Source: a virus
Direction: 5' to 3' (one strand)
IMG/VR virus record: IMGVR_UViG_3300022670_000646
Coordinates: 1-57,298 of that record
DNA: 57,298 bases
The stretch's first letter is position 1, and each line of letters starts with the position of its first letter. This document shows, one piece after another, positions 8,029 to 37,195 of this stretch. The position numbers were made by a program, and so were the translations under genes. The notes under the pieces are model-generated. The model ran no database searches, had not been told where the DNA came from, and saw only the letters and a program-made list of their open reading frames with translations.

Positions 8029-8883
8029 TTATACGCCAACCAGAGAGCTGCCGTCATGGTTGATAACCACGACACCGCTATTCTGGAGCAGTTGTGAGCC
8101 CATGTAAATCGAGCAACGCGCCCAGGAATAATCCTGTTCCTCATCGTAGCCCGCCCGAGCCTCCAGATCGTCCGCGTTATAGGCATGGCCTATCGAGGAT
8201 TTGTGGAAGCAAAAACATTTCTCTGCATTGGTGCCAACACCCGGCAGATTCGGATGCACGACCCACATCATGTTCAGCCACATATACGAAATTGGCTTGT
8301 CGCGCCAGGCCGGGTCCGCGTAGCGGGTCGGGCCGCCGTCGATGTATTCGCGAGAGCCAAATTCCTTGACCTGCATCATGAACGCCTCATAAGCCGGCGT
8401 CACCAACATGCAGATGTTTGAATCCCACGGTACTTCAGCAACACCGAGAATGGTTTTGGCGCGCAGGGTAAGACCCAGATCCGCCGTCACCGCTGACGTA
8501 CCGGCCGTGACTGTGGCCGTGTTCAGTTCGGTGATGATGTCCTGATCGATCTTACGATTGATGACGCCCATGCAGGTCTGCTGCATGATCGCGCGCTGAT
8601 TGCCTTGCGAAGCGAAGATGTTGAAATCTGTCTTTCGAACCAGATCGTGCCACTCGACCAGCGTTGCAACCGGCTGGCTGAGGTTATCGCCGCGTGCCGG
8701 AATGAGACCGTTTACGCCACGAGTTTTAGCGGTAGCACCGCCAGAATCAGCTACCAGAAAGGTCGCCTGATTGCCCTTGATGACCGCTTCTGTGGTCACA
8801 AAAGAGCGCAACAGGGACTGGAGCTGCTCGAACCCGGCAATGAATTCCTGCCGGTATTGAATTTGGAACGCTGTCTCGGCCAC
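8029..8883 (-). CDS. Major capsid protein
   Basis: 284 aa with a GTG start after GGGAGAG. Portal-scaffold-capsid synteny. Codon usage is typical of highly expressed genes (0 of 13 Arg codons are AGR). Confidence 0.75.
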   Translation of the reverse strand: MAETAFQIQYRQEFIAGFEQLQSLLRSFVTTEAVIKGNQATFLVADSGGATAKTRGVNGLIPARGDNLSQPVATLVEWHDLVRKTDFNIFASQGNQRAIMQQTCMGVINRKIDQDIITELNTATVTAGTSAVTADLGLTLRAKTILGVAEVPWDSNICMLVTPAYEAFMMQVKEFGSREYIDGGPTRYADPAWRDKPISYMWLNMMWVVHPNLPGVGTNAEKCFCFHKSSIGHAYNADDLEARAGYDEEQDYSWARCSIYMGSQLLQNSGVVVINHDGSSLVGV

Positions 8884-21355: not shown

Positions 21356-21883
21356 TCAAATTCCATGTGTGCTGCTAAAACCAAGCCTTATCTCCGCTGA
21401 CCTACGGCGGCAACAAGCTTCAAAAAAGTCCTTGCCAGCATATAGATAATACCTCTTACCCTGAGAATCTATCGTGGACTGCCATCTTTGTCGAGTTTTC
21501 TGCCAATAAACTCCCGTGATGCCGTATGTATTATCGGACCTCTTGCCTCTGTTCTTACAATTGTCTGAGCGAGTCGCTGGACGTAAGTTTTTCAGTCTAT
21601 TATCCAGTGAATTACGATTGATGTGGTCAATCTCGTCAACCAAGACACCATGCACGATCAGCCAAATAATCCGTGCCACGTTATAAACTTTACCATTGAT
21701 TTTAACGCGGCGAGAAACGTACCCTTGCTTCGTCCTTACTGTTGATCCAGCTATAGATCCGACCTTGTATTTACTATTACAAGCCGGAGACCGCCTGATT
21801 AGATTCTCTCCATCGTACTCAAAGCGCTCGATAGCAACCGCAAGATTCAGCATTTTTATCAATCCAAAACATCCTGATATCAC
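21356..21883 (-). CDS. HNH-AP2 homing endonuclease
   Basis: IDHINRNSLDNRLKNLRPATRSDN (HNH) followed by GITGVYWQKTRQRWQSTIDSQGKRYYLYAGKDFFEA (AP2-like). AT-richer than its flanks by eye. The likely start is ATG 21853 (MLNLAV). Confidence 0.75.
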   Translation of the reverse strand: MISGCFGLIKMLNLAVAIERFEYDGENLIRRSPACNSKYKVGSIAGSTVRTKQGYVSRRVKINGKVYNVARIIWLIVHGVLVDEIDHINRNSLDNRLKNLRPATRSDNCKNRGKRSDNTYGITGVYWQKTRQRWQSTIDSQGKRYYLYAGKDFFEACCRRRSAEIRLGFSSTHGI

Positions 21884-22283
21884 GAGCTATTATACGCGGA
21901 ACTTCAAACTCCTGCCATGGTTGCTCTGCAAACTTGTCAAGCATGAAATCCTGAGTAGGGATAAGCACATGCACCTCATCGCCGAAGTGATCCTCGAACA
22001 TGATTCGACCCCAGATCAGGCTTGGACCGAACTCACCGCTCATTTTCTGGCGTGTTGTGTGATTGTGTAGATGCCCAAAATGGTGCCATTTGCACAGACC
22101 AATGGTCCAGCGATGCTGCTCAGCCCCCTTACCTACGCGCCGGCCTCGCTCTGTAACGTGCTCAATTGAGGCGTGCACATCAAGATAGCCCACCAACAAG
22201 CAAGGCAGACAACCGCAATACTTGGCTATTGTCTCCATGCGGTCTCGCTCGTTCTTGCGAGCTCGCGGAGTCGAGCCAACCAT
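21819..22283 (-). CDS. Ref/NinG-like HNH-type recombination nuclease (putative)
   Basis: 154 aa. CGCLPCLLVG...SIEHV...LCKWHHFGHLHNH Cys/His cluster. The 3' end runs into the HNH-AP2 gene. Confidence 0.5.
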   Translation of the reverse strand: MVGSTPRARKNERDRMETIAKYCGCLPCLLVGYLDVHASIEHVTERGRRVGKGAEQHRWTIGLCKWHHFGHLHNHTTRQKMSGEFGPSLIWGRIMFEDHFGDEVHVLIPTQDFMLDKFAEQPWQEFEVPRIIARDIRMFWIDKNAESCGCYRAL

Positions 22284-23503: not shown

Positions 23504-23726
23504 TGTCGAATTTCCTCAGCATGTTTCGAATAATATCCTTGGCCGTTGTGTACTCCTGCCACTCCCGTACTTGGACGCCTAAACTCTCGTCCGCGTCATA
23601 CATGGCGTCGCGGCAAAACGGCGTCCAATCTCCTGTACGTGACTTGCAAATGACCAGCAATATGGCCATGCGATCAGCTAGAAACGCTACTCTTGCGGCG
23701 TTCAGACTTTTCTCGTCCTTTGGCAT
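23439..23726 (-). CDS. Hypothetical protein overlapping both neighbours
   Basis: 95-aa ORF. It overlaps the helicase 3' end by 53 nt and the next gene by 65 nt. Confidence 0.35.
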   Translation of the reverse strand: MPKDEKSLNAARVAFLADRMAILLVICKSRTGDWTPFCRDAMYDADESLGVQVREWQEYTTAKDIIRNMLRKFDNEHINLQERQQGKVAGNDQGG

Positions 23727-25215
23727 ACGCTATATTCCTCGACGTTATCCAGTTAAGTACCCTCTTGTCAGGCGGCACAGAGACCATGTTCATCCAGTGC
23801 CGCTCTGGCCAGCAGCCACACTTTTCTTTGAATTTCACGGCCGCCCAGCCGGGCTTGTAGTTGTGCTCGGCGCCGTAGCGCTTCAACATGCAGAAGAGAA
23901 TCTCGTGCGACACCCATCCCTTTGGCAGCTTCTCCACCAACGCTTTGCCGATGCGCACCAGATCAGCTTGAGTGGTGGCGACGTCGCGTTTTGTAAACGG
24001 CACCTTCCAGCCACATTCCGGGCATACCCTGGAGCGGCTGAAAATATAATGGCACTCCTCGCACTCGTGCTGTTTGGCCTCCTCAGCCTCTCCGGATTCT
24101 TCGTTGCGCGTCCAGTTCTCGCAGGCCTTCTTGCCCGGATCTAGGCGCCAACGAAACAGGTCATCTGCCTGCCCAAGTGCTGGCACGTTGCCGGCGTGAT
24201 CTAGGACCATGGTGGCACCACCATCGATATTCGGACGCATACCTCGGCCAAGGGATTGATGATGGAAAACGATGCTTTTGGTCGGCCTAGCTAAGACCAC
24301 ACAATTGATACTTGGAGCATTGTACCCGTAACTCGCGATTCCAACGTTTACAAGCACTTGAATTATCTGGGATTTGAACTGTTCGTTAAGCTGATCTCGA
24401 TCGCTATCATCAAGGTGAACGTGCAATGCACCGGCACTAATTCCAACCTGCTTAAACCGATCGGCGAGCAGCTCACAATGAGCAATATCAACAGCAAACA
24501 CTATCGTATGGCAATCAGAGGCCAACCGCAGCCAGTTGTCGACGACATCTCCCACTAATTTCACACAGCGATTTGACAGTTTTTTTACCTCATAATCGCC
24601 GCGCCGAATCTTAATCCCCTCCATGTCTGGTGTAGCACCCCCCCAGTATTCCATTTTGCAAAGATGTCCATCTTTGACAAGCCTTCTTATGGTTGTGATG
24701 TGCTTTAGAGTCGACCAGAATGTTCCAAGACCCTTACCAGTCAGTCTGGCTGGCGTTGCTGTATAGCCATCGATAGCAGCCTTGGGTGCATAGTGTTCAA
24801 GTATTTCCAGAATCTTAGGGGCGGTTGACAAATGGCACTCATCGGTCAACAGACGGTCCACCTTTGGAAACCAAAAGTCAGAGCGCCGAGCACGTGAAAT
24901 CAGTGTAGGCCACGACACAATATGAATTGGGGATACCGGATTCCATCGCTCACCCTCCCTTTTTGCCCTGAGCATGGTGACGTTTTCTGCACCACAAACC
25001 TCACTTACAATATTATGAGTCTGACCAAATATCTCATTACGCGGAGTCAAAATCGCCGTCGAATTGCCGCGCTCCATTTCACGCTTTGCGGTAAATGCCT
25101 GCATCAAACTTTTGCCTGATCCGCACGGGGCTATGTGTATTGGCCGCAATTCTTTACCATGATTCAAAGCATAATTAACGGACTCCTCTTGGTAATCTCG
25201 AAGAACGAATGTCAT
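23674..25215 (-). CDS. Superfamily-2 DEAD/DEAH-box DNA helicase with a C-terminal zinc ribbon
   Basis: 513 aa from ATG 25215 (ATGA overlap). Motif I APCGSGKS, motif II TDECH, C-terminal CEECHYIFSRSRVCPECGW. Confidence 0.85.
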   Translation of the reverse strand: MTFVLRDYQEESVNYALNHGKELRPIHIAPCGSGKSLMQAFTAKREMERGNSTAILTPRNEIFGQTHNIVSEVCGAENVTMLRAKREGERWNPVSPIHIVSWPTLISRARRSDFWFPKVDRLLTDECHLSTAPKILEILEHYAPKAAIDGYTATPARLTGKGLGTFWSTLKHITTIRRLVKDGHLCKMEYWGGATPDMEGIKIRRGDYEVKKLSNRCVKLVGDVVDNWLRLASDCHTIVFAVDIAHCELLADRFKQVGISAGALHVHLDDSDRDQLNEQFKSQIIQVLVNVGIASYGYNAPSINCVVLARPTKSIVFHHQSLGRGMRPNIDGGATMVLDHAGNVPALGQADDLFRWRLDPGKKACENWTRNEESGEAEEAKQHECEECHYIFSRSRVCPECGWKVPFTKRDVATTQADLVRIGKALVEKLPKGWVSHEILFCMLKRYGAEHNYKPGWAAVKFKEKCGCWPERHWMNMVSVPPDKRVLNWITSRNIAYAKGREKSERRKSSVSS

Positions 25216-25700
25216 ACGTGACACCAGCTTTTTTTCGCACGCACCTTGTAGATTGTCCGGCGGGTAACGCCATATTGTTTGGCTAAGATTCTTGGAGCTT
25301 TTGTGCTTTGTCTTATTTCCAATACCCCTGCTTCGGTCAATTTGGCCTGCGGCTTCTGACTTCCTACCTTATGTAACATTGCCGTGTTATCTCGCCCTCG
25401 TTCTATGCAATCCGCCCTATTTGTTTTCGCACTGCCTGCGTAAAGGTGATCGGGATTAATACAGTCTGTGACATCACAATGGTGGCAAATGTGCACCCCG
25501 TCTGGAATTGCGCCATGAGCAATATGATAAGAAACCCTATGTGCTAAGTATCTCTTATTGTTGATTGTTAGCAGCCCGTAGCCTTGGCGATGCTTCCAGC
25601 CCCTCCATCTCCAACACCCAGCAGCGTCTACCACATAGCCATTCAGAATCCTTTTCTTAATGGATTCAGTGATCTGGTACTGGCGTTCCTCAATCTCCAC
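25212..25700 (-). CDS. HNH endonuclease with a C-terminal HTH module
   Basis: 162 aa. GYGLLTINNKRYLAHRVSYHIAHGAIPDGVHICHHCDVTDCINPDHLYAGSAKTNRAD. Confidence 0.8.
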   Translation of the reverse strand: MEIEERQYQITESIKKRILNGYVVDAAGCWRWRGWKHRQGYGLLTINNKRYLAHRVSYHIAHGAIPDGVHICHHCDVTDCINPDHLYAGSAKTNRADCIERGRDNTAMLHKVGSQKPQAKLTEAGVLEIRQSTKAPRILAKQYGVTRRTIYKVRAKKSWCHV

Positions 25701-28741: not shown

Positions 28742-29244
28742 CCCCACGGCTCCAGCTTTTCGCATTGTCCAGGTGAACAGGAGCACCAGTTTACCCTTGC
28801 ACTAAGCATGGTCTGCAGAGCCTTGAGTGCTTCATCATGGCTGCCCATCTGTAACATTTCGAATACGCCCTTAACCTCGGGCAATATTTCATCATTGATC
28901 GATGGCTGGTAAACAATAGCCCCGGGCCTAACATCCAAGTCGCCAACTGCAACCGCTTCGAGCTGTACAGGAGGCGGATTCGGCACCACCTTGACGTAGT
29001 TCTCAAACTCGAACGCATCGACAATGCTCATGCGGCCATCGCCATGTTTGACAAGCCACGCAAGATCAGGAATCGGCAGCTCCTCGCCGTTAATCGTGAT
29101 CCAATTTTGGCCATCAATGGTGAGAAACGCTCGACTGTCCAGCCACTCAGGCCATAGCTTTTCCTGATAGCGAGATGACTCGGTGATCTGATAACCCTCG
29201 ATCGTTTCATCACCAATGGTGTAGCGAAAATCTTGGTCAGCCAT
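28705..29244 (-). CDS. Hypothetical protein
   Basis: 179 aa from ATG 29244 (MADQDFRY...). Confidence 0.55.
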   Translation of the reverse strand: MADQDFRYTIGDETIEGYQITESSRYQEKLWPEWLDSRAFLTIDGQNWITINGEELPIPDLAWLVKHGDGRMSIVDAFEFENYVKVVPNPPPVQLEAVAVGDLDVRPGAIVYQPSINDEILPEVKGVFEMLQMGSHDEALKALQTMLSARVNWCSCSPGQCEKLEPWGCREQSPLVKGA

Positions 29245-29968
29245 CGAAATCCCTTTTCGTTTGTTCAAGTGATGGAGTACGGTATGCGATGACCGCGTGC
29301 GCTGCCCATGTGGACACATACTCCAAATCCGCGACATCCGCTTGAGTCAGGTCCAGCCTGAGCGCATCGCCACCCGGATACGGGAAAGCCTTATACAGTG
29401 CGTTCGCCTGCCGGAGCTCATCGCGTTCGGTCTCCGCTTGTGTCGGCTCCGGCTTGGCCGCGCGATTATCGTCCGGGCTTGGCTCCTGAGTAGAGTTGGG
29501 GGGTGAATCGTTCACCCCTGGTTCTGCCGCTGCCGCCTGGTTCGCGATTCGTTGCACCGTGCGCTTGGTAACACAGCAAATATCGGCTTGCTCCTGACGG
29601 CTCATTTGGGATATCTGCGGGTCCTTCAGGGCGATCTCAACGGCGTTTCGCTTGTCAGCGCTAGTGCGACGCAGGCCGTGCTCGCTGTTCCCACCAAGCG
29701 CGTGTATGAGCGCCTCGTGCATGCCGCCTTCGTGGACTTCGCACTCTATTTCGTCCCGCTCAGCATGGACCGCGGCATAAAGACGGTGAAAACCGCGTGA
29801 GAGAATCGTTCTCGAGGAGTCCTTCTCACGAAACACATCGATCGGCGGCATAATGGCGCCCGCCTTGATGTCCTCGCAATACTCGTCAATGATGTCCTTG
29901 TGCAGCCGGGTGCGAACCTGGGTTTTATCTGATGCCTCTATGGAATCGCATTTAAGAAACGTCGCCAC
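29237..29968 (-). CDS. ParB/Srx-fold (ParB-like nuclease domain) protein with an HTH
   Basis: 243 aa from GTG 29968 after GAGGAG. The N-terminal domain has SRGFHRLYAAVHAE (DGxHR-type ParB/Srx motif), and ICCVTKRTVQRIANQ is HTH-like. Confidence 0.7.
   Translation of the reverse strand: MATFLKCDSIEASDKTQVRTRLHKDIIDEYCEDIKAGAIMPPIDVFREKDSSRTILSRGFHRLYAAVHAERDEIECEVHEGGMHEALIHALGGNSEHGLRRTSADKRNAVEIALKDPQISQMSRQEQADICCVTKRTVQRIANQAAAAEPGVNDSPPNSTQEPSPDDNRAAKPEPTQAETERDELRQANALYKAFPYPGGDALRLDLTQADVADLEYVSTWAAHAVIAYRTPSLEQTKRDFDG
29500..29518. promoter_or_regulatory. Variant palindrome GGGGTGAA-TCG-TTCACCCC inside the ParB-like gene
   Basis: 8-bp perfect arms. The outer 7 nt of each arm match the three 19-bp palindromes. 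Confidence 0.45.
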
Positions 29969-30257
29969 CGCTACTCTCCTCAGCTTTTAGCGGTAGCTCC
30001 TGCTGGCTGTTGTAAATCCGCTCGAGTTCGGCTTCGTGCTCATTCGCAAGATCAGTCACTACTCGATAGCGCAGGCTTTTCGTCTGATTGCTGCAGCTTA
30101 ACCGCATCACATCATAGGGATTGATCTCGGTTTTGCTCTCTTTGCAGATGCGCTGGCCAGCCTCACGCATCGCAACGATCATCGCACTCAGTCGCTCATC
30201 AGACTGCGCCCGCATACGCTGCCGGAACGTTACTCTTTTCGCTTTGCTTTTCTTCAT
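29952..30257 (-). CDS. Hypothetical basic protein
   Basis: 101 aa, ATGA coupling at 30257. Confidence 0.55.
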   Translation of the reverse strand: MKKSKAKRVTFRQRMRAQSDERLSAMIVAMREAGQRICKESKTEINPYDVMRLSCSNQTKSLRYRVVTDLANEHEAELERIYNSQQELPLKAEESSGGDVS

Positions 30258-30514
30258 GTCGGATCCCTGTTCAGTAGTTCGTCCTCGGCCGCGGATAGGA
30301 AGTCACGGTTTTTCGACTCCAGCACCCTGACCTCCTCGACGGTCATAGCCTTGCCGTCGTCATGAAATCGGTACTTTGGCAACGGCACCGGGTCTATCTT
30401 TTCAACGCGCCAGCGCAAATAGCCCGATGGAATGTCCGTGATGTCCTGGCCTTTGTGCTTACCGAAATGGCATTTCACTTCACTCTCCTCATCAAAATAG
30501 GGTTCCCGCGACAC
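30254..30514 (-). CDS. DUF3820-like protein
   Basis: 86 aa. FGKHKGQDITDIPSGYLRW motif. GTG 30514 preceded by AAGGAAA. Confidence 0.55.
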   Translation of the reverse strand: MSREPYFDEESEVKCHFGKHKGQDITDIPSGYLRWRVEKIDPVPLPKYRFHDDGKAMTVEEVRVLESKNRDFLSAAEDELLNRDPT

Positions 30515-31084
30515 TTGGCCGCTTTCCTTTGCAACCTTGTTGGGCGACTACCTCCAACGACATAATGGTCTTGTGGATGCTCCGGCGCACGATTTGTTCA
30601 CACCCACTAACGTGGTTGGTTTCACGCACCATCGGGCAAGGACTGTTTGTCGTGCTCATTAAATTCTGTATTACAGATATACCTCCGGCCCTTCCCTTGT
30701 CGGAACCCAAGGTCAGTTGATGCCTTCTCTTGTCGTGCCTTACAGGGACCAAGATCAACGGACGGCCGGTAGGTCCTTCCTTGGATTTGTCTCGGTTTGA
30801 GTTCACAAACTGCTTTGAAGTGGCACCGGACCCAAAGCCGCGAGCTTCGGAACGTATCCGGTTGATTGGCGTATATCCGGATTGCCAACCTTGACCACCA
30901 TCAAAACAGCCTGTTACACGGTCAGACCTCTCCAAAACACCGCTGGAACGCGGGAAGGTCTTGCAGATTGCAGACGGATTCATGCTAGAATGCCTGCATC
31001 TGGTCTCCAAGCCGAGCGCATTACCAGATACGAGGCCCCTCCCTATTCGCAACGGAGGGGCTTCATTCATTGAGAGTATCGAAA
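30515..31084. other. 570-nt region without a convincing native gene: candidate structured RNA, replication origin or orphan ORF
   Basis: The only long ORF (30492..31088, minus strand, 198 aa) uses 8 AGA/AGG Arg codons and 5 ATA Ile codons, against 0 AGR and 1 ATA in the capsid gene. Many short stem-loops. TTGTCGTGC at 30647 and 30730, related words at 30697 and 30787, and an AT-rich patch at 30655-30683. Confidence 0.4.
31035..31070 (+). terminator. GC-rich hairpin with a plus-strand U-rich tail (candidate terminator of an antisense/plus transcript)
   Basis: GCCCCTCC (31035-31042) pairs with GGAGGGGC (31054-31061), followed by TTCATTCATT on the plus strand. There is no U-tract on the minus strand. 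Confidence 0.35.
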
Positions 31085-31585
31085 TCACGCCGTCTCCGCA
31101 ATAGAGGTTCGTTGCTTTTCGCGGAACAGCACCTTTTCTGCGATCGATTTATTTTCGACCGATAGATTACAAGGAAAACAGGCCATAACTAAATTAAATG
31201 GATGATTATTACCGCCCTTGCTGATCTCAAGTAAGTGCTCCAGCGTCAGGATTATTTCCAGCCCACAGAACCAACATGCCGGTCCATCTCTAGCAATAAT
31301 GGTCCGCTCAAGAACTGTCTTACCTTTACCTGGGCGCTTGGTTTTATCGCCATCAAGGCCAGACCACGATTTTCTATTGATATAGCAGTCATACGCCTCG
31401 GCAAGGGCATCGTCCCAAGTCAAGTTGCCCCGCTTATTTTTGTAGAGAACCGATATTTGACCACGAACATTAACGCGCAAAACCTCCCACTCATTCGTAG
31501 GTGACAATAGTGCGGCACCGTTCCTCGATAGATATTCCCGGAACTTTTTTAGGCGCAACTGGCTATTGTGGACAGGTATTGTCAT
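31085..31585 (-). CDS. HNH nuclease with a novel-looking N-terminal domain
   Basis: 166 aa. CWFCG...TLEHLLEISKGGNNHPFNLVMACFPCN (HNH). ATGA overlap with the ATPase stop. Confidence 0.7.
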   Translation of the reverse strand: MTIPVHNSQLRLKKFREYLSRNGAALLSPTNEWEVLRVNVRGQISVLYKNKRGNLTWDDALAEAYDCYINRKSWSGLDGDKTKRPGKGKTVLERTIIARDGPACWFCGLEIILTLEHLLEISKGGNNHPFNLVMACFPCNLSVENKSIAEKVLFREKQRTSIAETA

Positions 31586-33282
31586 TCGAAAAACACCGAC
31601 GCGGCCTTTATGCCGCCATCACGAGCGTAACCATCTGCGGCACCGATCGAGCGCAATCGACTCAGCACATTTCCGAAATGACTACTGGTTCGGCTGTAAC
31701 CTGAACTCACGCATATATCATCCTCAGTGACGCGCGCGCCGTTCGCTAAAATCAGTACGTCGAGGATTTTGTTCGCTGCGCCACCTAGCTTCGGCCGCAA
31801 CCATTCCCGCAACTCAGGGCCGGTCGGTTTTTCTTCGGCAACCGGACTCATGACCGCTTCGCCAGCCTCAGTAATTCGCCAACCGCTCACCAGGCCAGCG
31901 GTACGCAAGCTGCTAATAACGTTACCAAGATGGCTGCTTTTCGACGAGTAACCGGCATAAAATGACAGCTTATTTTTCGTCGCTTCCTCATCGCGTAACC
32001 ACCAGAACGCTCGCAGGATGGCCACCTGAGCCTTGCCTAGACTATCAATCTGTGGAGGTGCGGCAGAAGACGCATTATGTCCCACGAGGACACCTACTGG
32101 AGGTGCAGAGGGCCGCTCTGGCTGAGCAAGTTTTTTCTGTGTCACTTTCAGCAACGGCGGCACTGGCACATCAGAGTCAGGATTTATCATTTCCAGCAGT
32201 TCATTGACATAATTAAAAGCCGATTTTTGCGCGCACTGCAGCGAACTCACCCGATCCTCGAGCTGACTCACGTACTCGACTAGCTTCGAAGTATTCTCAC
32301 GCAAAACCTCTAACTCACCGTTATCTCTGTCATTTTTTGATAGCTTGATTTCCTTTTCCAGCACGCGAATACGCTGTTTCAATAGCTTCGGGTCAATCTC
32401 TTGAGCGCGTTTGATCGTACCGGCCATCTGCTCACGCAATCTCGATACGTCGACATCGGCCAGGCGGGCTGTCTTGCTTTTCACTGCCATTTTCGGCGTC
32501 GATCCAGAATCGAACGTATTACGGCGGCGGAACTTTACCTGTTTTGTGCATTTCAGAAACTGCGGCGACCACACCCACGCCTCGCCGTTAGCGAGCCCAG
32601 GCAGCGTCTTGAGTATGTCGCGAGACTGGTCGTTGTACTTAACCCATTCCTCAATCGCCTTGCGATCTTGAGGTCCTGTAGTTCGCATGGCGATCAGGGT
32701 CTGTACTTGCGTCAGCACGTTTTTGTTTATCGATGCACTGCGCTGAGTGATCATCGTCATTCCAAGACCCCGGGCCCGGCCGCGCCGAACGATATTCTCC
32801 CACGCACGCAATAACTGCCCCTCATCACGCATCGGTCGCTGCGGAATGTAGTCGTCAGCCTCCTCAAGGAATAGATGCAGCGGTTCCTCGTTGCGCTTAT
32901 ATAGACGCCGCGAAAAATCGAGTAAAAACTGTTTCTTTGCCGCCTCGCTATCGAAGTCTGTCAAATCCAAGATGCACGACAGACGCTCATCGACAACGAT
33001 ATCGGCAATCAGGCGACCACCAGTGCGCTCCAACGGCACATCGCCGCGCTTTCCGCCGAACAGCGGTATATCAAGACCTGCACCGGAGCCAGTTTTCGAC
33101 GATCGCATACCCCACCACGATCCAACCGGATCAACGACAACGAATGGCAGCTCACGGGCGAACATTTCTTCAGCCATAACGGTCGCAGAATTCGACTTCC
33201 CGGCGCCGCGAGCCGCAAGAATCCCGAAAGTTTCAGTGATCGCCTCATCTGGTATCGAGAAGCCTTTACCGAGATTTAGCAT
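31582..33282 (-). CDS. HerA/FtsK-type (DUF87-like) P-loop ATPase with two C-terminal winged-helix-like repeats
   Basis: 566 aa. Walker A GILAARGAGKSN, VVVDPVGSWWG, Walker B LFLEEADDYIP, a coiled-coil linker, then the repeated modules SSHLGNVISSLRTAGLV and SSHFGNVLSRLRSIGAA. Confidence 0.7.
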   Translation of the reverse strand: MLNLGKGFSIPDEAITETFGILAARGAGKSNSATVMAEEMFARELPFVVVDPVGSWWGMRSSKTGSGAGLDIPLFGGKRGDVPLERTGGRLIADIVVDERLSCILDLTDFDSEAAKKQFLLDFSRRLYKRNEEPLHLFLEEADDYIPQRPMRDEGQLLRAWENIVRRGRARGLGMTMITQRSASINKNVLTQVQTLIAMRTTGPQDRKAIEEWVKYNDQSRDILKTLPGLANGEAWVWSPQFLKCTKQVKFRRRNTFDSGSTPKMAVKSKTARLADVDVSRLREQMAGTIKRAQEIDPKLLKQRIRVLEKEIKLSKNDRDNGELEVLRENTSKLVEYVSQLEDRVSSLQCAQKSAFNYVNELLEMINPDSDVPVPPLLKVTQKKLAQPERPSAPPVGVLVGHNASSAAPPQIDSLGKAQVAILRAFWWLRDEEATKNKLSFYAGYSSKSSHLGNVISSLRTAGLVSGWRITEAGEAVMSPVAEEKPTGPELREWLRPKLGGAANKILDVLILANGARVTEDDICVSSGYSRTSSHFGNVLSRLRSIGAADGYARDGGIKAASVFFE

Positions 33283-33539
33283 CCACGATCCCCTATAGCA
33301 TCGTCGATTGCTTTGAGCTGCTCATCGCTGATGCCGCCAAGCTGTGGGTTATGCAGGTTTGCCGACACCATGCGCAGCAGACCTTTCAATACGACTGCAT
33401 CCTCATATCGCACCCAATCACCGTTGTACTTCTCGGTGATGGCAATGCGGGCAATGGCTGTATTGCGCTGCGCTGGTGCCACTCCTGTAACGGACTGCTG
33501 GCCGCGCGTGATTTCGGAAGTGATGTTGTAGCGCTTCAT
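33276..33539 (-). CDS. Hypothetical protein
   Basis: 87 aa from ATG 33539 (ATGA overlap). Confidence 0.5.
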   Translation of the reverse strand: MKRYNITSEITRGQQSVTGVAPAQRNTAIARIAITEKYNGDWVRYEDAVVLKGLLRMVSANLHNPQLGGISDEQLKAIDDAIGDRGC

Positions 33540-33769: not shown

Positions 33770-33900
33770 TGCAGCAGCCAATAAATGATTAGACCAACCG
33801 CCATGAGAACGAATGGCAGGTCAAAAAACCAGAATTTAATTGGATTTTCTTCAAATTCATCGATCAGGCGCCGAAATACGCCGCGTTTTTGTTTGGTCAT
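33766..33900 (-). CDS. 44-aa membrane peptide
   Basis: MTKQKRGVFRRLIDEFEENPIKFWFFDLPFVLMAVGLIIYWLLQ. ATGA overlap with the RHH gene stop. Below the track cut-off. Confidence 0.45.
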   Translation of the reverse strand: MTKQKRGVFRRLIDEFEENPIKFWFFDLPFVLMAVGLIIYWLLQ

Positions 33901-34049
33901 ACAGGAATCCCCTTCTTTTCCGCCTGACGATGGATGTGATTCAACACATAGTTGGCAGCACTGATGCCTTCCTGATTCGCCAGCTTATGTAAGGCTTCAC
34001 GCTCAAGCTCTTTCAAGCGCATTTGAAACTTCTTGTCTTTTCTGTCCAT
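33897..34049 (-). CDS. Ribbon-helix-helix (Arc/MetJ/CopG-like) regulator
   Basis: 50 aa from ATG 34049. KKFQMRLKELEREALHKLANQEGISAANYVLNHI fits a strand-helix-helix layout. No SD. The track ORF extends to 34163 through implausible hydrophobic sequence. Confidence 0.6.
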   Translation of the reverse strand: MDRKDKKFQMRLKELEREALHKLANQEGISAANYVLNHIHRQAEKKGIPV

Positions 34050-34056
34050 ACACGGT

Positions 34057-34085
34057 AATGTACACACAAACGGCATGACATGCAA
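34057..34085 (-). promoter_or_regulatory. Candidate promoter giving a leaderless RHH mRNA
   Basis: On the minus strand: TTGCAT (34085-34080), 17-nt spacer, TACATT (34062-34057), then 7 nt to ATG 34049. Confidence 0.4.
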
Positions 34086-34132
34086 CATGCACACGCGAGG
34101 AAAAAAAATGACGCCGAATAAGCCAATTGAGG

Positions 34133-34151
34133 GGGGTGACATTGTCACCCC
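34133..34151. promoter_or_regulatory. 19-bp perfect palindrome GGGGTGACA-T-TGTCACCCC, copy 3
   Basis: Located in the divergent control region between the RHH gene and the plus-strand recombination operon, 14 nt upstream of ATG 34166. Confidence 0.65.
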
Positions 34152-34165
34152 TAGAGGAACCAACC

Positions 34166-35224
34166 ATGACTGAAAAGAGCGCCGAAGACTTCATACCTGG
34201 GCAGGACGAGCTCGACAGCCCGGGCACGCTGATCAATTTCAACATCAACGACGTGCGCATTGCCGAAGCCAAGGAGGAATTCAAAGCAATTGATGCGGCC
34301 GTCGACATGGATGCCGCCAAGAAAGCCAAGAAGGTGCTCACCAAGATGCGCACCACGCTGGCTGACGCTCACAAGGAGCAAAAAGCGGAGGCCCTAGCCC
34401 ATGGACAGAAGCTCGACGCCGAGAAGCGCCGCCTGCTGGCGCTGATCGCAGAGGTAGAGGACCCCATCAGCAAGCAGATCACGACCATAAAGAATGCCAT
34501 CGAACGCCAAGAAGAAGATCGTATTGGCAAGATACAAGAGGCCATTCAGGTAATCGCAGACCTCGCCGAGGACCGCCACAGCCTGACCCTCGAGGAGCTG
34601 GAAGCACGCTACGGACAAGTCAGTACGATTTCGCTGACCGAGGAGGTGTATCAGGAGGAAATTGAACGCGCCGGCACCGTCAAGGAAGACGCTGAAATGA
34701 AGCTGCGTATCACTATTTCCAACGAAAAGGAGCGACTCGAAGAAGTGGCCAATCAGGAGGAAATCAGGTCTGAAAATGAACGTCGGCAAAAGGAGCTGGA
34801 CGAACGCCTGGCCAAGCTGGACGTGGAGGAGGCCGAGCGTAAGGCTGCACAGAAGAAGACCGATGACGCTGCGGCCGAGAAACTGGCCAAGGAGAACGCT
34901 GAAAAGCAGGCCGAACTGGATCGCCAAGCCGAGGAAAACCGCAAGGCCAAGAAGCTAATCTACGACGAGAATGTGCGCATTGATCAAGAGAGGGCTGACA
35001 AGGAGGAGCGTGAGCGCAAGGAGCGGGAGCAACTCGAGGCCACTGAGCGGGCTCTCAAGCTGGCTCCTGACACCGAGAAGCTTGAGATATATGCCGAGCA
35101 GTTATGCAGTATCCCTGAGCCAGAGCTTGATACCGACGCGGGCAAACGTGTGCTGGCGCTGACCGTTGAAAAGCTGTTAGTCGCGATCAACTATATCCAC
35201 GACGAAACGAGGAAAATGAAATGA
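34166..35224 (+). CDS. DUF1351-like coiled-coil protein (recombination-module partner of ERF)
   Basis: 352 aa from ATG 34166 (AGAGGAA SD). Extremely Glu/Lys/Ala-rich coiled coil. Its position upstream of erf is typical. Confidence 0.65.
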   Translation: MTEKSAEDFIPGQDELDSPGTLINFNINDVRIAEAKEEFKAIDAAVDMDAAKKAKKVLTKMRTTLADAHKEQKAEALAHGQKLDAEKRRLLALIAEVEDPISKQITTIKNAIERQEEDRIGKIQEAIQVIADLAEDRHSLTLEELEARYGQVSTISLTEEVYQEEIERAGTVKEDAEMKLRITISNEKERLEEVANQEEIRSENERRQKELDERLAKLDVEEAERKAAQKKTDDAAAEKLAKENAEKQAELDRQAEENRKAKKLIYDENVRIDQERADKEERERKEREQLEATERALKLAPDTEKLEIYAEQLCSIPEPELDTDAGKRVLALTVEKLLVAINYIHDETRKMK

Positions 35225-36102
35225 GTGAGTCAACCCCAGCGGAACAGCAGATTTATAAATGTGTCCACGAAGTCACAGGACCTATCGACGAAAAGCTGAG
35301 CCAGTTATCGAAAGACTTTATCGAGTCGCACGATGGCCTACAGGACGGCGTATTAAAGTTAAGGCAGCATCTCAATGGCATCGAAGCCATGCTCGAGAAC
35401 ATTGAGAAAGCACCATCAACGCCTAACCGGGCTGAGCTGTACGCTGCACTGGCCAAGGCTCAGGGAGAAATGAAGCCTGCCGAGAAAAACAAGACAGCCG
35501 AGATTCGCAAGAAAGATGACTACAACATCATCTTGTACACGTTTAAGTACGCCGATCTTGCGTCTTGCCTCGAGGCAATTCGTAAGCCATTTGCTGATAA
35601 TGAGCTGTGCCTGATTCAGATACCCTCACTGGGCGAGGGCAATGACATACACATGCGCACCGTGATTGGGCACTCGTCAGGGCAGACCGTTTCTTGTGAA
35701 ATGACCATGAAAGCTGCAAGCGATACTCCGCAAGCAATCGGCACCGTCATGGCATACCTGCGGCGTTACTCATTGTGCTCAATAACTGGCGTGGCCCAGT
35801 TCGACGACGATGGCAGCGGTGGCATCAAGGACGAGAGCGACTACCCTCGAATTACAACAGCCGAAGCCGAGCAAATCATCATCAAGGCGGACGAGCTGTG
35901 TGGCGCCCGCGCTGACCAGGTTATAGCCAGGATGCTCAAAGGCGTGTTTGGTGGCATCACCGTGGTAGGCGACATCAAAGCTGGCGAAGCAAAGGTGGCG
36001 CTCGTCAACCTGCAAAACGCGGCTGACCTGATCGAGAAGACGGCCAAAGCAGCCAAGAAAAAGGACAGGGACGACAGGAAGGCTGCGGAGGATCAGGGCT
36101 AG
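35221..36102 (+). CDS. erf: ERF-family single-strand annealing protein
   Basis: 293 aa. LAKAQGEMKPAEKNKTA...YTFKYADLASCLEAIRKPFADNELCLIQ...MAYLRRYSLCSITGV matches ERF. Confidence 0.8.
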   Translation: MSESTPAEQQIYKCVHEVTGPIDEKLSQLSKDFIESHDGLQDGVLKLRQHLNGIEAMLENIEKAPSTPNRAELYAALAKAQGEMKPAEKNKTAEIRKKDDYNIILYTFKYADLASCLEAIRKPFADNELCLIQIPSLGEGNDIHMRTVIGHSSGQTVSCEMTMKAASDTPQAIGTVMAYLRRYSLCSITGVAQFDDDGSGGIKDESDYPRITTAEAEQIIIKADELCGARADQVIARMLKGVFGGITVVGDIKAGEAKVALVNLQNAADLIEKTAKAAKKKDRDDRKAAEDQG

Positions 36103-36106
36103 CCGG

Positions 36107-36538
36107 ATGAATGACAATGTAGTTCCACTATTCCCGGATCCTACCTGCGGAGACCCTGACAATATCACCGGGAAGTATATTCTGGTTGATAAAGTGCCTG
36201 TGTCATGCCCGGATTTGATGCGATGGGGCCGGTTCATGCAGGACGCTGATCGCCACGCTGCGCAAACGATGGTCAAGGGTGTCCGTGTATCCACGGTGTT
36301 CCTCGGTCTTGATCATAACTGGGACGGCGGTCCTCCGGTGCTATTCGAAACCATGATTTTCGGCGGCGAGCACGACGAAGAGTATCAGGAGCGGTGCTGC
36401 ACATGGGCTGAGGCCGAGGATATGCACAAGGCAGCAGTCAAAGTTGCCAAAGTTGGCAAGAAAGTTCCGAGCTACAAGTGGGCCTGTAGAATAAAGGCGA
36501 AACGATTTCGCAAATTTATGAAGCGCTGGCGGCTCTAA
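36107..36538 (+). CDS. Hypothetical protein
   Basis: 143-aa ORF in the recombination operon. Confidence 0.6.
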   Translation: MNDNVVPLFPDPTCGDPDNITGKYILVDKVPVSCPDLMRWGRFMQDADRHAAQTMVKGVRVSTVFLGLDHNWDGGPPVLFETMIFGGEHDEEYQERCCTWAEAEDMHKAAVKVAKVGKKVPSYKWACRIKAKRFRKFMKRWRL

Positions 36539-37195
36539 TTGGACTGCCGCATCATCGCCGTAGAGCAGGGAGATAGTTCTGAGGAGTGGCTTGCCCTGCG
36601 GCGTTGCCGGATCACCTGCTCGCGCCTTGCGGATGTTTGCGCCGGCAAGGACACCAAGCGCTACAAACGATATTTGCAGGAGAAAATCAAGGAACTGTGT
36701 GGCCACAAGAGCGTGGAAGAATCCCCAGAATGGGCCTCGCATGGAAAGGAGAACGAACCGCGCGCGCTGGCCGGCTACGAATTCAAGTACGGCGTCGACG
36801 TCGAGCACAATGTCTTTCTGATTTCCAATAAATATGATTGGTTGTCCTGTTCACCAGATCTGCTGGAGTTGCCGGGATACCTTGTGGGCGGTGAGATAAA
36901 ATGCCGCGAATTATTCAAGAATTACCGCAAGTTTCGCAACGAGGCAGAGGCCCACAAAGGCACCACCCGAGCCTGCCCCGCGAGCGACCGACACCAGGTT
37001 CAAGGTGCAATGTGGGTCTCAGGTTTTAGCTACTGGTGGCACATCAATTTTTATATTGGCGATGACTTGCAAGGCGGCATGGCACAAAAAATTACCAGAG
37101 TTGCCGTACCCAGAGATCAGGCATTGATCGACAAGATGGAGATCAGATGTTTGGAGTTTATGCAGGAAGCCTATCAAGGAGCTGGACTGGCATGA
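36539..37195 (+). CDS. YqaJ/lambda-exonuclease-like PD-(D/E)XK recombination exonuclease
   Basis: 218 aa with a TTG start directly after TAA. QGDSSEEWLALRRCRITCSRLADV, then SCSPD...GGEIKC catalytic-like motifs. Confidence 0.7.
   Translation: MDCRIIAVEQGDSSEEWLALRRCRITCSRLADVCAGKDTKRYKRYLQEKIKELCGHKSVEESPEWASHGKENEPRALAGYEFKYGVDVEHNVFLISNKYDWLSCSPDLLELPGYLVGGEIKCRELFKNYRKFRNEAEAHKGTTRACPASDRHQVQGAMWVSGFSYWWHINFYIGDDLQGGMAQKITRVAVPRDQALIDKMEIRCLEFMQEAYQGAGLA

Follow-up and report, generated by a model that had tools for sequence, protein, structure and literature searches.

Introduction

The CopA/CopT-tap-repA system of plasmid R1 and the Inc RNA-repY-repZ system of ColIb-P9 are examples of the antisense control of a translated leader, and in both of them the leader peptide is unimportant. 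In phages, the cis-antisense RNAs OOP of lambda and sar of P22 are about 70-80 nt in length, have their own promoter and a hairpin at the 3' end, and lie in early regions. GOLLD and ROOL are structured RNAs of 0.5-0.8 kb in phage genomes, which harbor many conserved hairpins and whose function is unknown (PMC12286853). In this study, the IMG/VR virus record IMGVR_UViG_3300022670_000646 (57,298 nt; hereafter the window) was analysed around a stretch of about 570 nt in its early operon. An earlier reading of the window, made from the letters alone (the sequence-only reading), had noticed that this stretch was open in one frame without resembling a native gene, and had offered three explanations: a structured or antisense RNA associated with a neighbouring ATPase-nuclease pair, an iteron-type replication origin and a recently acquired orphan gene. 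Comparison with related loci indicates that the stretch is part of a conserved, structured and modular non-protein RNA element without a match in Rfam, which is found in about 12 uncultured phages. The element is best explained, with a probability of roughly 0.5, as the modular structured leader of a downstream block of p86, p101 and ParB-like genes, which would be carried on the early-operon transcript and controlled by an antisense RNA. Such an arrangement would apply the logic of the R1 and ColIb-P9 leaders to a much longer and modular one.

Results

A conserved modular element in about 12 phages

The element lies on the minus strand, which is the operon strand, and its parts in the window are the following.

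30485-31101, minus: whole conserved non-protein element (5' boundary, module A, insert, module B, linker, module C), recognised with nhmmer and by alignments with 11 other loci.
31073-31101, minus: 5' boundary, TTGCGG-N17-TACTCT, with equal spacing in eight loci; the motif occurs once in the window.
30919-31078, minus: module A, four successive hairpins in a layout shared by all eight homologues.
31030-31066, 30998-31029, 30970-30997 and 30929-30967, minus: hairpins H1, H2 and H3 and the H4 region of module A.
30804-30918, minus: optional insert, made of a long hairpin domain and shared by the window and L040.
30683-30803, minus: module B, two nested helices and a 3' hairpin, recognised by pairing and covariation.
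30656-30682, minus: AT-rich linker joining B to C, in which a small hairpin (UCUGU/ACAGA) lies; copies with all three modules conserve this linker.
30485-30672, minus: module C, recognised with covariance model R1 and by covariation.

The sample comprised 12 loci including the window (window, L039, L040 and L068-L076). A protein search with the 198-aa translation of the open frame gave two metagenomic "proteins", a full HMMER search gave six more, and a further three loci came from scanning viral contigs for exact blocks. Modules A, B and C occur together in the window, L040, L039 and L072, and A and B occur without C in L071, L075 and L076; L074 is truncated at the end of its contig. In L070 an unrelated middle part separates A from C, and C alone is present in L068, L069 and L073. 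Each genome holds one copy, which is always on the operon strand and co-directional with its neighbours. The module-C-only copy in L068 (4269-4884) starts exactly at the stop codon of an SSB gene (C-terminus ...DDDIPF), which indicates that module C can act without A, B and the antisense unit described below, and in another gene context.

The covariance models of Rfam 15 gave no match in the whole window at gathering thresholds, and permissive filters gave none at E <= 10 between 30200 and 31400, RNAI, CopA, GOLLD, ROOL, HEARO, the group I and II introns and the riboswitches included. Exact scans for the conserved blocks, one of metagenomes and one of genomes, returned chance matches only. A gapped module-B pattern had one chance match in viral contigs, within coding sequence, and a protein search with a six-frame concatenated pseudo-protein of 2531 aa returned no matches. 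Moreover, a full-text literature search for the conserved blocks yielded no paper, and a general literature search yielded no matching element. The 570-nt part is a genuine and apparently undescribed RNA element that forms a new family. Support for the element from these comparisons is good at the sequence level and moderate at the structural level.

Pairing and covariation in modules B and C

In module B, 92% of cells were paired, compared with 35-48% in slid controls. Seven pairs were changed on both sides, a number reached by 6 of 500 shuffles, and the covariation score of 0.284 (vs 0.147) was reached by none of the 500. Module C had 89% of cells paired (27-50% in slid controls) and a covariation score of 0.151 (vs 0.088; 1 of 500 shuffles), and covariance model R1 retrieved exactly the eight known copies of C and nothing besides. 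Furthermore, G.U pairs are invariant on the operon strand at columns 27/52 of B and at columns 176/184, 35/74 and 36/73 of C, which indicates that B and C are sense-strand structures. With pairing beyond the slid controls and covariation beyond the shuffles, B and C class as structured RNAs, and the structured-RNA proposal of the sequence-only reading is borne out by this covariation and by the conservation of the element. Of the RNA-family checks that it had suggested, the Rfam search returned nothing, and the covariation analysis was positive for B and C and gave no formal demonstration for A.

Module B is marked by a conserved UACGGCU loop, the block GGCACGACA, a co-varying direct repeat of 13 nt and a Shine-Dalgarno (SD)-like GGAG at its 3' end. 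The repeat, CGACAAG(A/G)GAAGG at 30690-30702 and 30723-30735 in plus coordinates (sense CGACAAGGGAAGG and CGACAAGAGAAGG), changes in concert across all eight module-B homologues. The strand between the copies is complementary to each of them, so that two mutually exclusive helices are compatible with the data, and these alternatives hint at a switch. The repeated 9-mer TTGTCGTGC (30647 and 30730) and the AT-rich patch, both noticed previously, are present where they had been placed. L071 and L074 carry an insert different from that of the window, and L039, L072, L075 and L076 carry none; compensatory changes in the basal helix of the insert were read by eye from the alignments.

Module C consists, in order, of helix P1 (GCACGA/UCGUGC), invariant internal loops, a variable hairpin, a variable region, an invariant hairpin, a U-rich stretch and the SD sequence of the next gene. 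P1 shows one compensatory change and one wobble change, the variable hairpin has a different sequence in every lineage, and the terminal hairpin, GCGGC-CAAGU-GUCGC (30508-22), is invariant. Directly after this invariant hairpin (window 30500-30507 and the corresponding site in L039, L040, L068, L069, L070 and L073), five of the eight copies have a perfect palindrome of 8-10 nt whose sequence differs by locus (AGGAUCCU, GGAAUUCC, AGGUACCU, AAAGCUUU and GAGAUAUCUC, with AGGUACCU of L073 provisional), and the window (GGGAACCC) and L072 are non-palindromic at this site. That self-complementarity persists although the sequence changes could point to dimerisation of the RNA or to a tiny hairpin.

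A predicted antisense RNA opposite module A

The 5' boundary has the consensus TTGCRG-N17-TACTCT in the eight loci. In the window it contains an SD-like GGAG, a GTG start codon overlapping the stop codon of the HNH gene (GTGA), and ACUCUC. An SD-like GGAG or AGGA precedes the ATG or GTG by 5-10 nt (6-9 nt in most loci), and the start codon overlaps the stop codon of the upstream gene (RTGA) in the window, L039, L071, L072 and L076. Pairing is possible between ACUCUC and GAGAG at the module A 3' end, in a helix that reaches 10 bp in L039. The consensus was also considered as a sense promoter; this candidate was rejected because an SD sequence, a start codon, a helix strand and the antisense tail explain it at least equally well.

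The four hairpins of module A stand at equal relative positions in all eight homologues with differing arm sequences, and the mean minimum free energy z-score of the module is -3.7. The GC hairpin pointed out by the sequence-only reading is present in its place within H1, with arms at 31032-31042 and 31054-31064. H1 is more stable on the antisense strand in seven of the eight loci, with folding energies (dG) of -20.4 to -23.6 kcal/mol on that strand and -12.7 to -21.6 kcal/mol on the sense strand. The antisense form, H1', has 11-16 uninterrupted pairs in all eight homologues, with compensatory changes at several positions, and 14 of its pairs are G.U, which become C.A mismatches on the sense strand. 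By this G.U evidence the hairpin pairs properly on the plus strand only, the strand to which it had been assigned.

Two further features are found on that strand.

30961-30991, plus: promoter-like site, TTGCAG (30961-30966), 19-nt spacer and TAGAAT (30986-30991), with the -10-like box in eight of eight homologues.
30997-31076, plus: predicted cis-antisense small RNA of about 80 nt, made of H2', H1' and a U-containing tail, with the same fold in eight of eight.

The -10-like box (TAKAAT) has an equal position in the conserved H3 loop of every homologue (TAGAAT, TAGACT, TAGAAT, TATAAT three times, TATCAT and TAAGAT), with T1, A2 and T6 invariant, and a TTGNNN hexamer lies 16-19 nt upstream of it in seven of the eight. 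The predicted RNA, defined as starting about 7 nt past the box and ending past H1, folds in all eight as two hairpins and a single-stranded tail (dG -30 to -34, z -2.4 to -5.3). An antisense RNA of about 80 nt from the plus strand of module A is therefore listed here as a likely product of the locus. The sequence-only reading had proposed an antisense transcript of about 500 nt beginning near 30537; its antisense character is retained and its length is not, as the box at 30986-30991 predicts about 80 nt. The letters of the plus-strand promoter proposed for that transcript (30537-30566) are present, but they fail the scan criteria, lie in the variable part of module C and are not conserved among the homologues, and the candidate was discarded.

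An open frame without protein constraint

30492-31088, minus: 198-codon open frame, kept open without protein-level constraint.

Three open reading frames (ORFs) on the minus strand, 31582-33282 (566 aa), 31085-31585 (166 aa) and 30492-31088 (198 aa), are joined by ATGA and GTGA stop/start overlaps, as had been described. The last of them (ORF198) uses AGR for 8 of 20 Arg and ATA for 5 of 12 Ile codons, compared with 60/472 and 50/393 in 11 large ORFs of the window, and this recount confirms the atypical codon usage reported before. The ORF at 8029-8883, with AGR in 0 of 13 Arg and ATA in 1 of 17 Ile, has exactly the figures that the sequence-only reading gave for the capsid gene. In dinucleotide shuffles of the stretch, the ORF198 frame was open in 0.03% and any sense frame in 0.2%, so the claim of an unusually open frame was justified. 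A frame that is improbably open and yet not gene-like is a genuine puzzle.

Substitutions in the well-aligned parts fall on codon positions 1, 2 and 3 in the numbers 40/54/35, without third-position bias. The DNA alignment of the homologues shows long invariant blocks, split by highly variable segments and indels of 1-2 nt, and the distances between anchor blocks differ modulo 3 among homologues. The predicted protein P0006 follows the window's frame first and then the window's alternative frame, and the nucleotides of module B that read "LRLSxDLGPxWHD" in five homologues read "GRPLIxVP" in the window and L072. A Pfam search of ORF198 gave no family, and its AlphaFold model from the single sequence had a mean predicted local distance difference test (pLDDT) of 36. 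The conserved frame and third-position substitutions of a protein-coding sequence were not found. The earlier view that ORF198 is not a native protein gene holds in view of the frame shifts, the 40/54/35 distribution, the lack of a Pfam family and the pLDDT of 36. In public metagenomes, gene callers predicted "proteins" of 68-198 aa across the element (P0005-P0011, P0014 and P0016), and these correspond to the ORFs that span it in the window, L039, L071, L072 and L070. Such database entries are unlikely to be real proteins.

Counted from the conserved RTG, the frame runs through the entire element without a stop in four loci (window, L039, L072 and L071; P = 0.0003-0.003 each). L070, a locus which is unbiased towards open frames because it was found by DNA search, also has one fully open frame. 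Altogether one frame is open in five of the eight copies, and the other sense frames carry 4-13 stops. In the window and L039 the frame terminates within the conserved UAUUUUGAUGAGGAG, immediately ahead of the next start, and in L072, L071 and L075 its end overlaps or abuts the next start codon. Selection for the passage of ribosomes is suggested by this pattern and would reconcile the open frame with the lack of protein constraint; such passage could serve translational coupling or protection from polarity.

Downstream block and genomic context

30254-30478, minus: p86-family gene, the first of the downstream block, whose homologues begin at the equivalent codon.
29237-30257, minus: p101 and ParB_N-like gene, assigned by tblastn order, ParB_N and PHROG 1033.

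The likely true start of p86 is the GTG at 30478, past the SD sequence GAGGAG (30485-30490), and the 86-aa ORF is annotated at 30254-30514. The 12 codons with which this longer ORF begins are part of the RNA element, at its conserved 3' end. The p86 product has a weak Pfam match to QSregVF_b. In the tblastn comparison, the element is followed by p86, p101 and the ParB_N-like gene in the window, L039, L040 and L072, then by p210 where the locus reaches it, and a SNF2/DEAD helicase lies further downstream in the window, L039 and L072. Genes of the p86 family follow the element in six loci, L074 and L075 included, and p101 and ParB follow it in four. Moreover, the divergent Erf/p365 operon of the window recurs in L072, where small unrelated genes lie between this operon and the RNA and neither a HerA nor an HNH gene is present. 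The shared gene order and the absence of HerA and HNH from L072 indicate that the element travels with the downstream block.

As for the rest of the window, the large terminase is about 40% identical to BPP-1-like, Acidovorax and Limnohabitans phage terminases, which suggests a BPP-1-like phage of Proteobacteria. The region 33897-37195 is a divergent early control region, in which a small minus-strand ORF (33897-34163), ribbon-helix-helix-like by eye and without a Pfam or PHROG match, faces a plus-strand operon of a 365-aa coiled-coil protein, Erf (35221-36102) and a YqaJ exonuclease (36539-37195). A gene for a RecA-dependent nuclease (Ref-like) is located at 21819-22283.

The neighbouring ATPase and HNH genes

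31582-33282, minus: HerA-family P-loop ATPase, 566 aa, with a duplicated C-terminal module (Pfam, PDB matches and internal repeat).
31085-31585, minus: free-standing HNH endonuclease, 166 aa (Pfam HNH and PHROG 7785).

The ATPase scored 28.7 bits with DUF87 (PF01935; cut-off 23.2) and 23.4 bits with HerA_C (PF05872; cut-off 22), and HerA proteins were its top matches in a PDB search (E = 8e-13). On these matches it is a genuine HerA-family protein, as had been suggested, and the two repeated C-terminal modules seen by eye are a true internal repeat (BLASTP E = 7e-11). Homologues with 37-70% identity were found in 35 viral loci of IMG/VR; HerA-like ATPases with the duplicated C-terminal module are thus frequent in uncultured phages, and their neighbours vary. 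A weak PHROG match to a terminase large-subunit family suggests a DNA-translocase role. In the 35 loci neither a homologue of this HNH nor the modules of the RNA element were present, and BLAST of 30200-33300 against a phage collection matched nothing except a HerA gene.

The 166-aa product scored 23.0 bits with Pfam HNH (PF01844; cut-off 21.4), and PHROG HNH family 7785 matched its residues 21-161 (E = 2e-17), which upholds the nuclease assignment. For the region N-terminal to the Pfam match, PHROG family 7785 was the only match. Only three homologues were found among 5.8 billion proteins. Two of these three were seen as DNA, one directly behind a DNA polymerase A gene (L036/L037) and one directly behind another unrelated gene (L038), and nothing resembling the 570-nt stretch lies downstream of them. 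The sequence-only reading had combined HerA and HNH into a two-gene module. However, tblastn with the window's three HNH proteins placed an HNH gene directly after HerA in 0 of 26 loci, these being the HerA-homologue loci, of the 35, with enough downstream sequence; the ORF that comes next differs in almost every one of them, and the HNH homologues sit elsewhere. Two further HNH genes (HNH_3) belong to the same early operon, at 25212-25700 and 21356-21883 on the minus strand, which brings the window to three. That at 25212-25700 overlaps the start of the SNF2/DEAD helicase gene (23674-25224).

The unrelated neighbours of the homologues, the three HNH genes in the window and the absence of any HNH gene after HerA point to a free-standing mobile endonuclease. 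By this comparison, the HNH gene is read as a mobile selfish insertion between the ATPase gene and the RNA element, unrelated to both. An ATGA overlap is the usual way in which genes of free-standing homing endonucleases get wedged in. The HerA-like ATPase is a mere neighbour of the RNA element and lies outside it, and the HerA-HNH part of the original observation is ordinary.

Discussion

The comparison of the loci revealed an element that is conserved in its nucleotides and not as a protein, is built of separable modules, shows covariation in B and C, harbors a strand-specific hairpin next to a conserved -10-like box, and is syntenic with the genes downstream. These features are best accommodated by a leader of the p86-p101-ParB-like block. 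In the mechanism that we infer, the antisense RNA would be fully complementary to the first approximately 80 nt of the leader, just past the SD sequence and the RTG start that overlaps the preceding stop, and its pairing with the leader would block ribosome entry or trigger cleavage. When the antisense RNA is absent, ribosomes would traverse the leader in frame, making a peptide that is irrelevant. They would finish at the ribosome-binding site of the next gene, opening the folded modules B and C on their way and coupling translation onward.

Several points weigh against this explanation. The comparison comprises 12 loci, several of them closely related, and the explanation as a whole is derived from comparing sequences. 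On the antisense side, the -35-like hexamers are weak and mostly at 19-nt spacing (four loci), compared with the 16-18 nt expected of a sigma-70-type promoter, and the tail of H1' has only 3-5 U per 10 nt. In the window both the promoter-like and the terminator-like sites fail a simple consensus scan, and transcription of the antisense RNA is a prediction for that reason. Alternatively, the -10-like motif could owe its conservation to a role as an RNA loop. On the sense side, modules B and C have no excess folding energy (z about 0), so that their signal consists of sequence conservation and covariation. The covariance model of module A had 64% pairing and no significant covariation. Neither module A nor the antisense RNA could be aligned structurally with MAFFT, and because MAFFT and the covariance model left the hairpins out of register, covariation in A is not formally demonstrated. 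The RTG frame is not kept open in L040, L075 and L076, and the sample is biased towards open frames because ORF translations led to most of the homologues; for these two reasons the evidence for translation through the element is only suggestive. Furthermore, the copies with C only (L068, L069 and L073) have no antisense unit, and C must therefore be able to work without it.

The alternative that fares best, although it is improbable, is a stand-alone large ornate noncoding RNA, or two of them (A plus B, and C), acting in trans as a ribonucleoprotein scaffold, a decoy or a ribozyme, with the antisense hairpin being incidental. The size of about 0.6 kb, the many conserved hairpins and invariant loops, the lack of an Rfam match and the independent occurrence of the modules fit this alternative, and the palindrome of 8-10 nt in five of eight C copies could allow dimerisation. 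However, the scan detected no sense-strand terminator belonging to the element, its 5' end runs into the stop codon of one neighbour and its 3' end into the start codon of the other, and one frame stays open.

A replication-priming region of the ColE1 type is a still less likely explanation. It would consist of a sense pre-primer of about 0.55 kb (RNA II-like) and an antisense RNA (RNA I-like), or else the hairpins would be a single-strand DNA initiation signal. A small predicted multi-hairpin countertranscript would face the 5' end of a structured sense RNA of about 0.6 kb, in a recombination and replication neighbourhood (Erf, YqaJ and ParB-like; SSB in L068). Nevertheless, there are no iterons or tandem repeats, the cumulative GC skew has no local reversal at the element, Rfam RNAI has no match, the 3' end runs into an SD sequence and a start codon with the frame kept open, and the modules also occur separately. 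An iteron-type origin, as the sequence-only reading had proposed, was sought as three or more regular direct repeats plus an AT-rich region; only short repeats in two copies were found, with no tandem arrays and an AT-rich patch of about 28 nt, and this proposal was dropped.

An operon-internal antitermination RNA like HK022 put or Bacillus EAR, which would ensure read-through of the early operon, is unlikely in spite of the cis-oriented structured RNA within the operon and the more than 10 kb of co-directional genes downstream. Each genome has a single copy, the frequency of downstream terminator-like sites does not exceed that in shuffles, and the element is much larger than known put and EAR elements and has no Rfam family. 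In its favour, UACUCUCAA at the 5' end and the hairpin after it may bear a loose resemblance to boxA-boxB.

That ORF 30492-31088 is a real and fast-evolving protein-coding orphan gene is very improbable. The 198 open codons, the SD-like sequences and the proteins predicted by gene callers in several metagenomes would be expected of such a gene. Set against them are the substitutions without third-position bias, the indels that shift the frame modulo 3 among homologues though the nucleotides are conserved, the atypical codon usage, and the lack of a domain together with the mean pLDDT of 36, and the recently acquired orphan gene of the sequence-only reading was accordingly given up. Least credible of all is one functional system of HerA ATPase, HNH nuclease and RNA, for although the three are adjacent in the window with an ATGA overlap, and a distant HerA-like gene lies upstream of the module C copy in L073, HNH follows HerA in none of the 26 related loci, HNH homologues occur in other contexts without the RNA, the modules are absent from all 35 HerA loci, and the syntenic phage L072 has the RNA and neither gene, which also removes the proposed tie of the RNA to the pair.

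Three other candidates were rejected. A group I or II intron is ruled out by the lack of an Rfam match and by the complete flanking ORFs. A retron or the template of a diversity-generating retroelement was set aside, as the ORFs adjacent to the element match no reverse-transcriptase family, the whole window not having been screened. A parS-like DNA site bears a loose resemblance only, and the compensatory changes in P1 favour base pairing.

Returning to the leader with its antisense RNA, a wider claim is possible but doubtful, namely that the element stands for an undescribed class in which an ornate leader of about 0.6 kb, read through in a frame for a meaningless peptide, is gated by an antisense RNA of about 80 nt and serves as a timing or dosage switch of the early block or as a priming unit like RNA II/RNA I. 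If the leader explanation is true, a new family absent from Rfam joins the short list of large structured phage RNAs, and countertranscript control in the style of plasmids extends to a phage early operon, where it acts on a leader of great length that ribosomes translate through. It would also explain a class of phage "ORFans", which gene callers take for proteins, as frames kept open for ribosome traffic and not for a product. In addition, a possible mis-annotation is corrected, since the HerA-HNH adjacency here is no sign of a defence-like ATPase-nuclease system.

Comparison with known systems

The protein-coding neighbours are compared first. The window ATPase shares the HerA core with HerA-NurA and other HerA defence systems. 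Unlike in those systems, the adjacent nuclease is not a conserved partner, no NurA, SIR2 or DUF4297 partner is present, and the ATPase carries a duplicated C-terminal module. The HNH gene resembles the free-standing HNH homing endonucleases of phages, in being a small ORF wedged between unrelated genes with stop/start overlaps, in having several copies per genome and in its patchy distribution among relatives.

Like GOLLD and ROOL, the element is a large structured phage RNA with many conserved hairpins; unlike them, it has no Rfam match, is embedded between coupled ORFs, has separable modules and bears an antisense unit. ColE1 RNA I/RNA II offers a parallel in size and geometry, its structured sense RNA measuring about 550 nt and facing, at the 5' end, a short antisense RNA of several hairpins, whereas the 3' end here is a translation start and not an origin, the frame is open, and Rfam RNAI is not matched. 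Lambda OOP and P22 sar are similar to the predicted antisense RNA in size, in having their own promoter (here putative), in the hairpin 3' end and in their place in a phage early region. They differ in that their targets are the cII or ant mRNA, in not being paired with a large conserved structured leader and in the lack of homology.

The leaders of R1 and ColIb-P9 have neither a sequence nor an Rfam relationship with the element, which is far longer (about 0.6 kb and 150-200 codons vs approximately 25 codons), is modular, and precedes the p86/p101/ParB-like genes of a phage early operon instead of a rep gene. In both cases, however, a small antisense RNA of two hairpins (here predicted) lies opposite the 5' part of a structured leader, and the frame of the leader ends at the ribosome-binding site of the regulated gene, a likeness which here is one of geometry.

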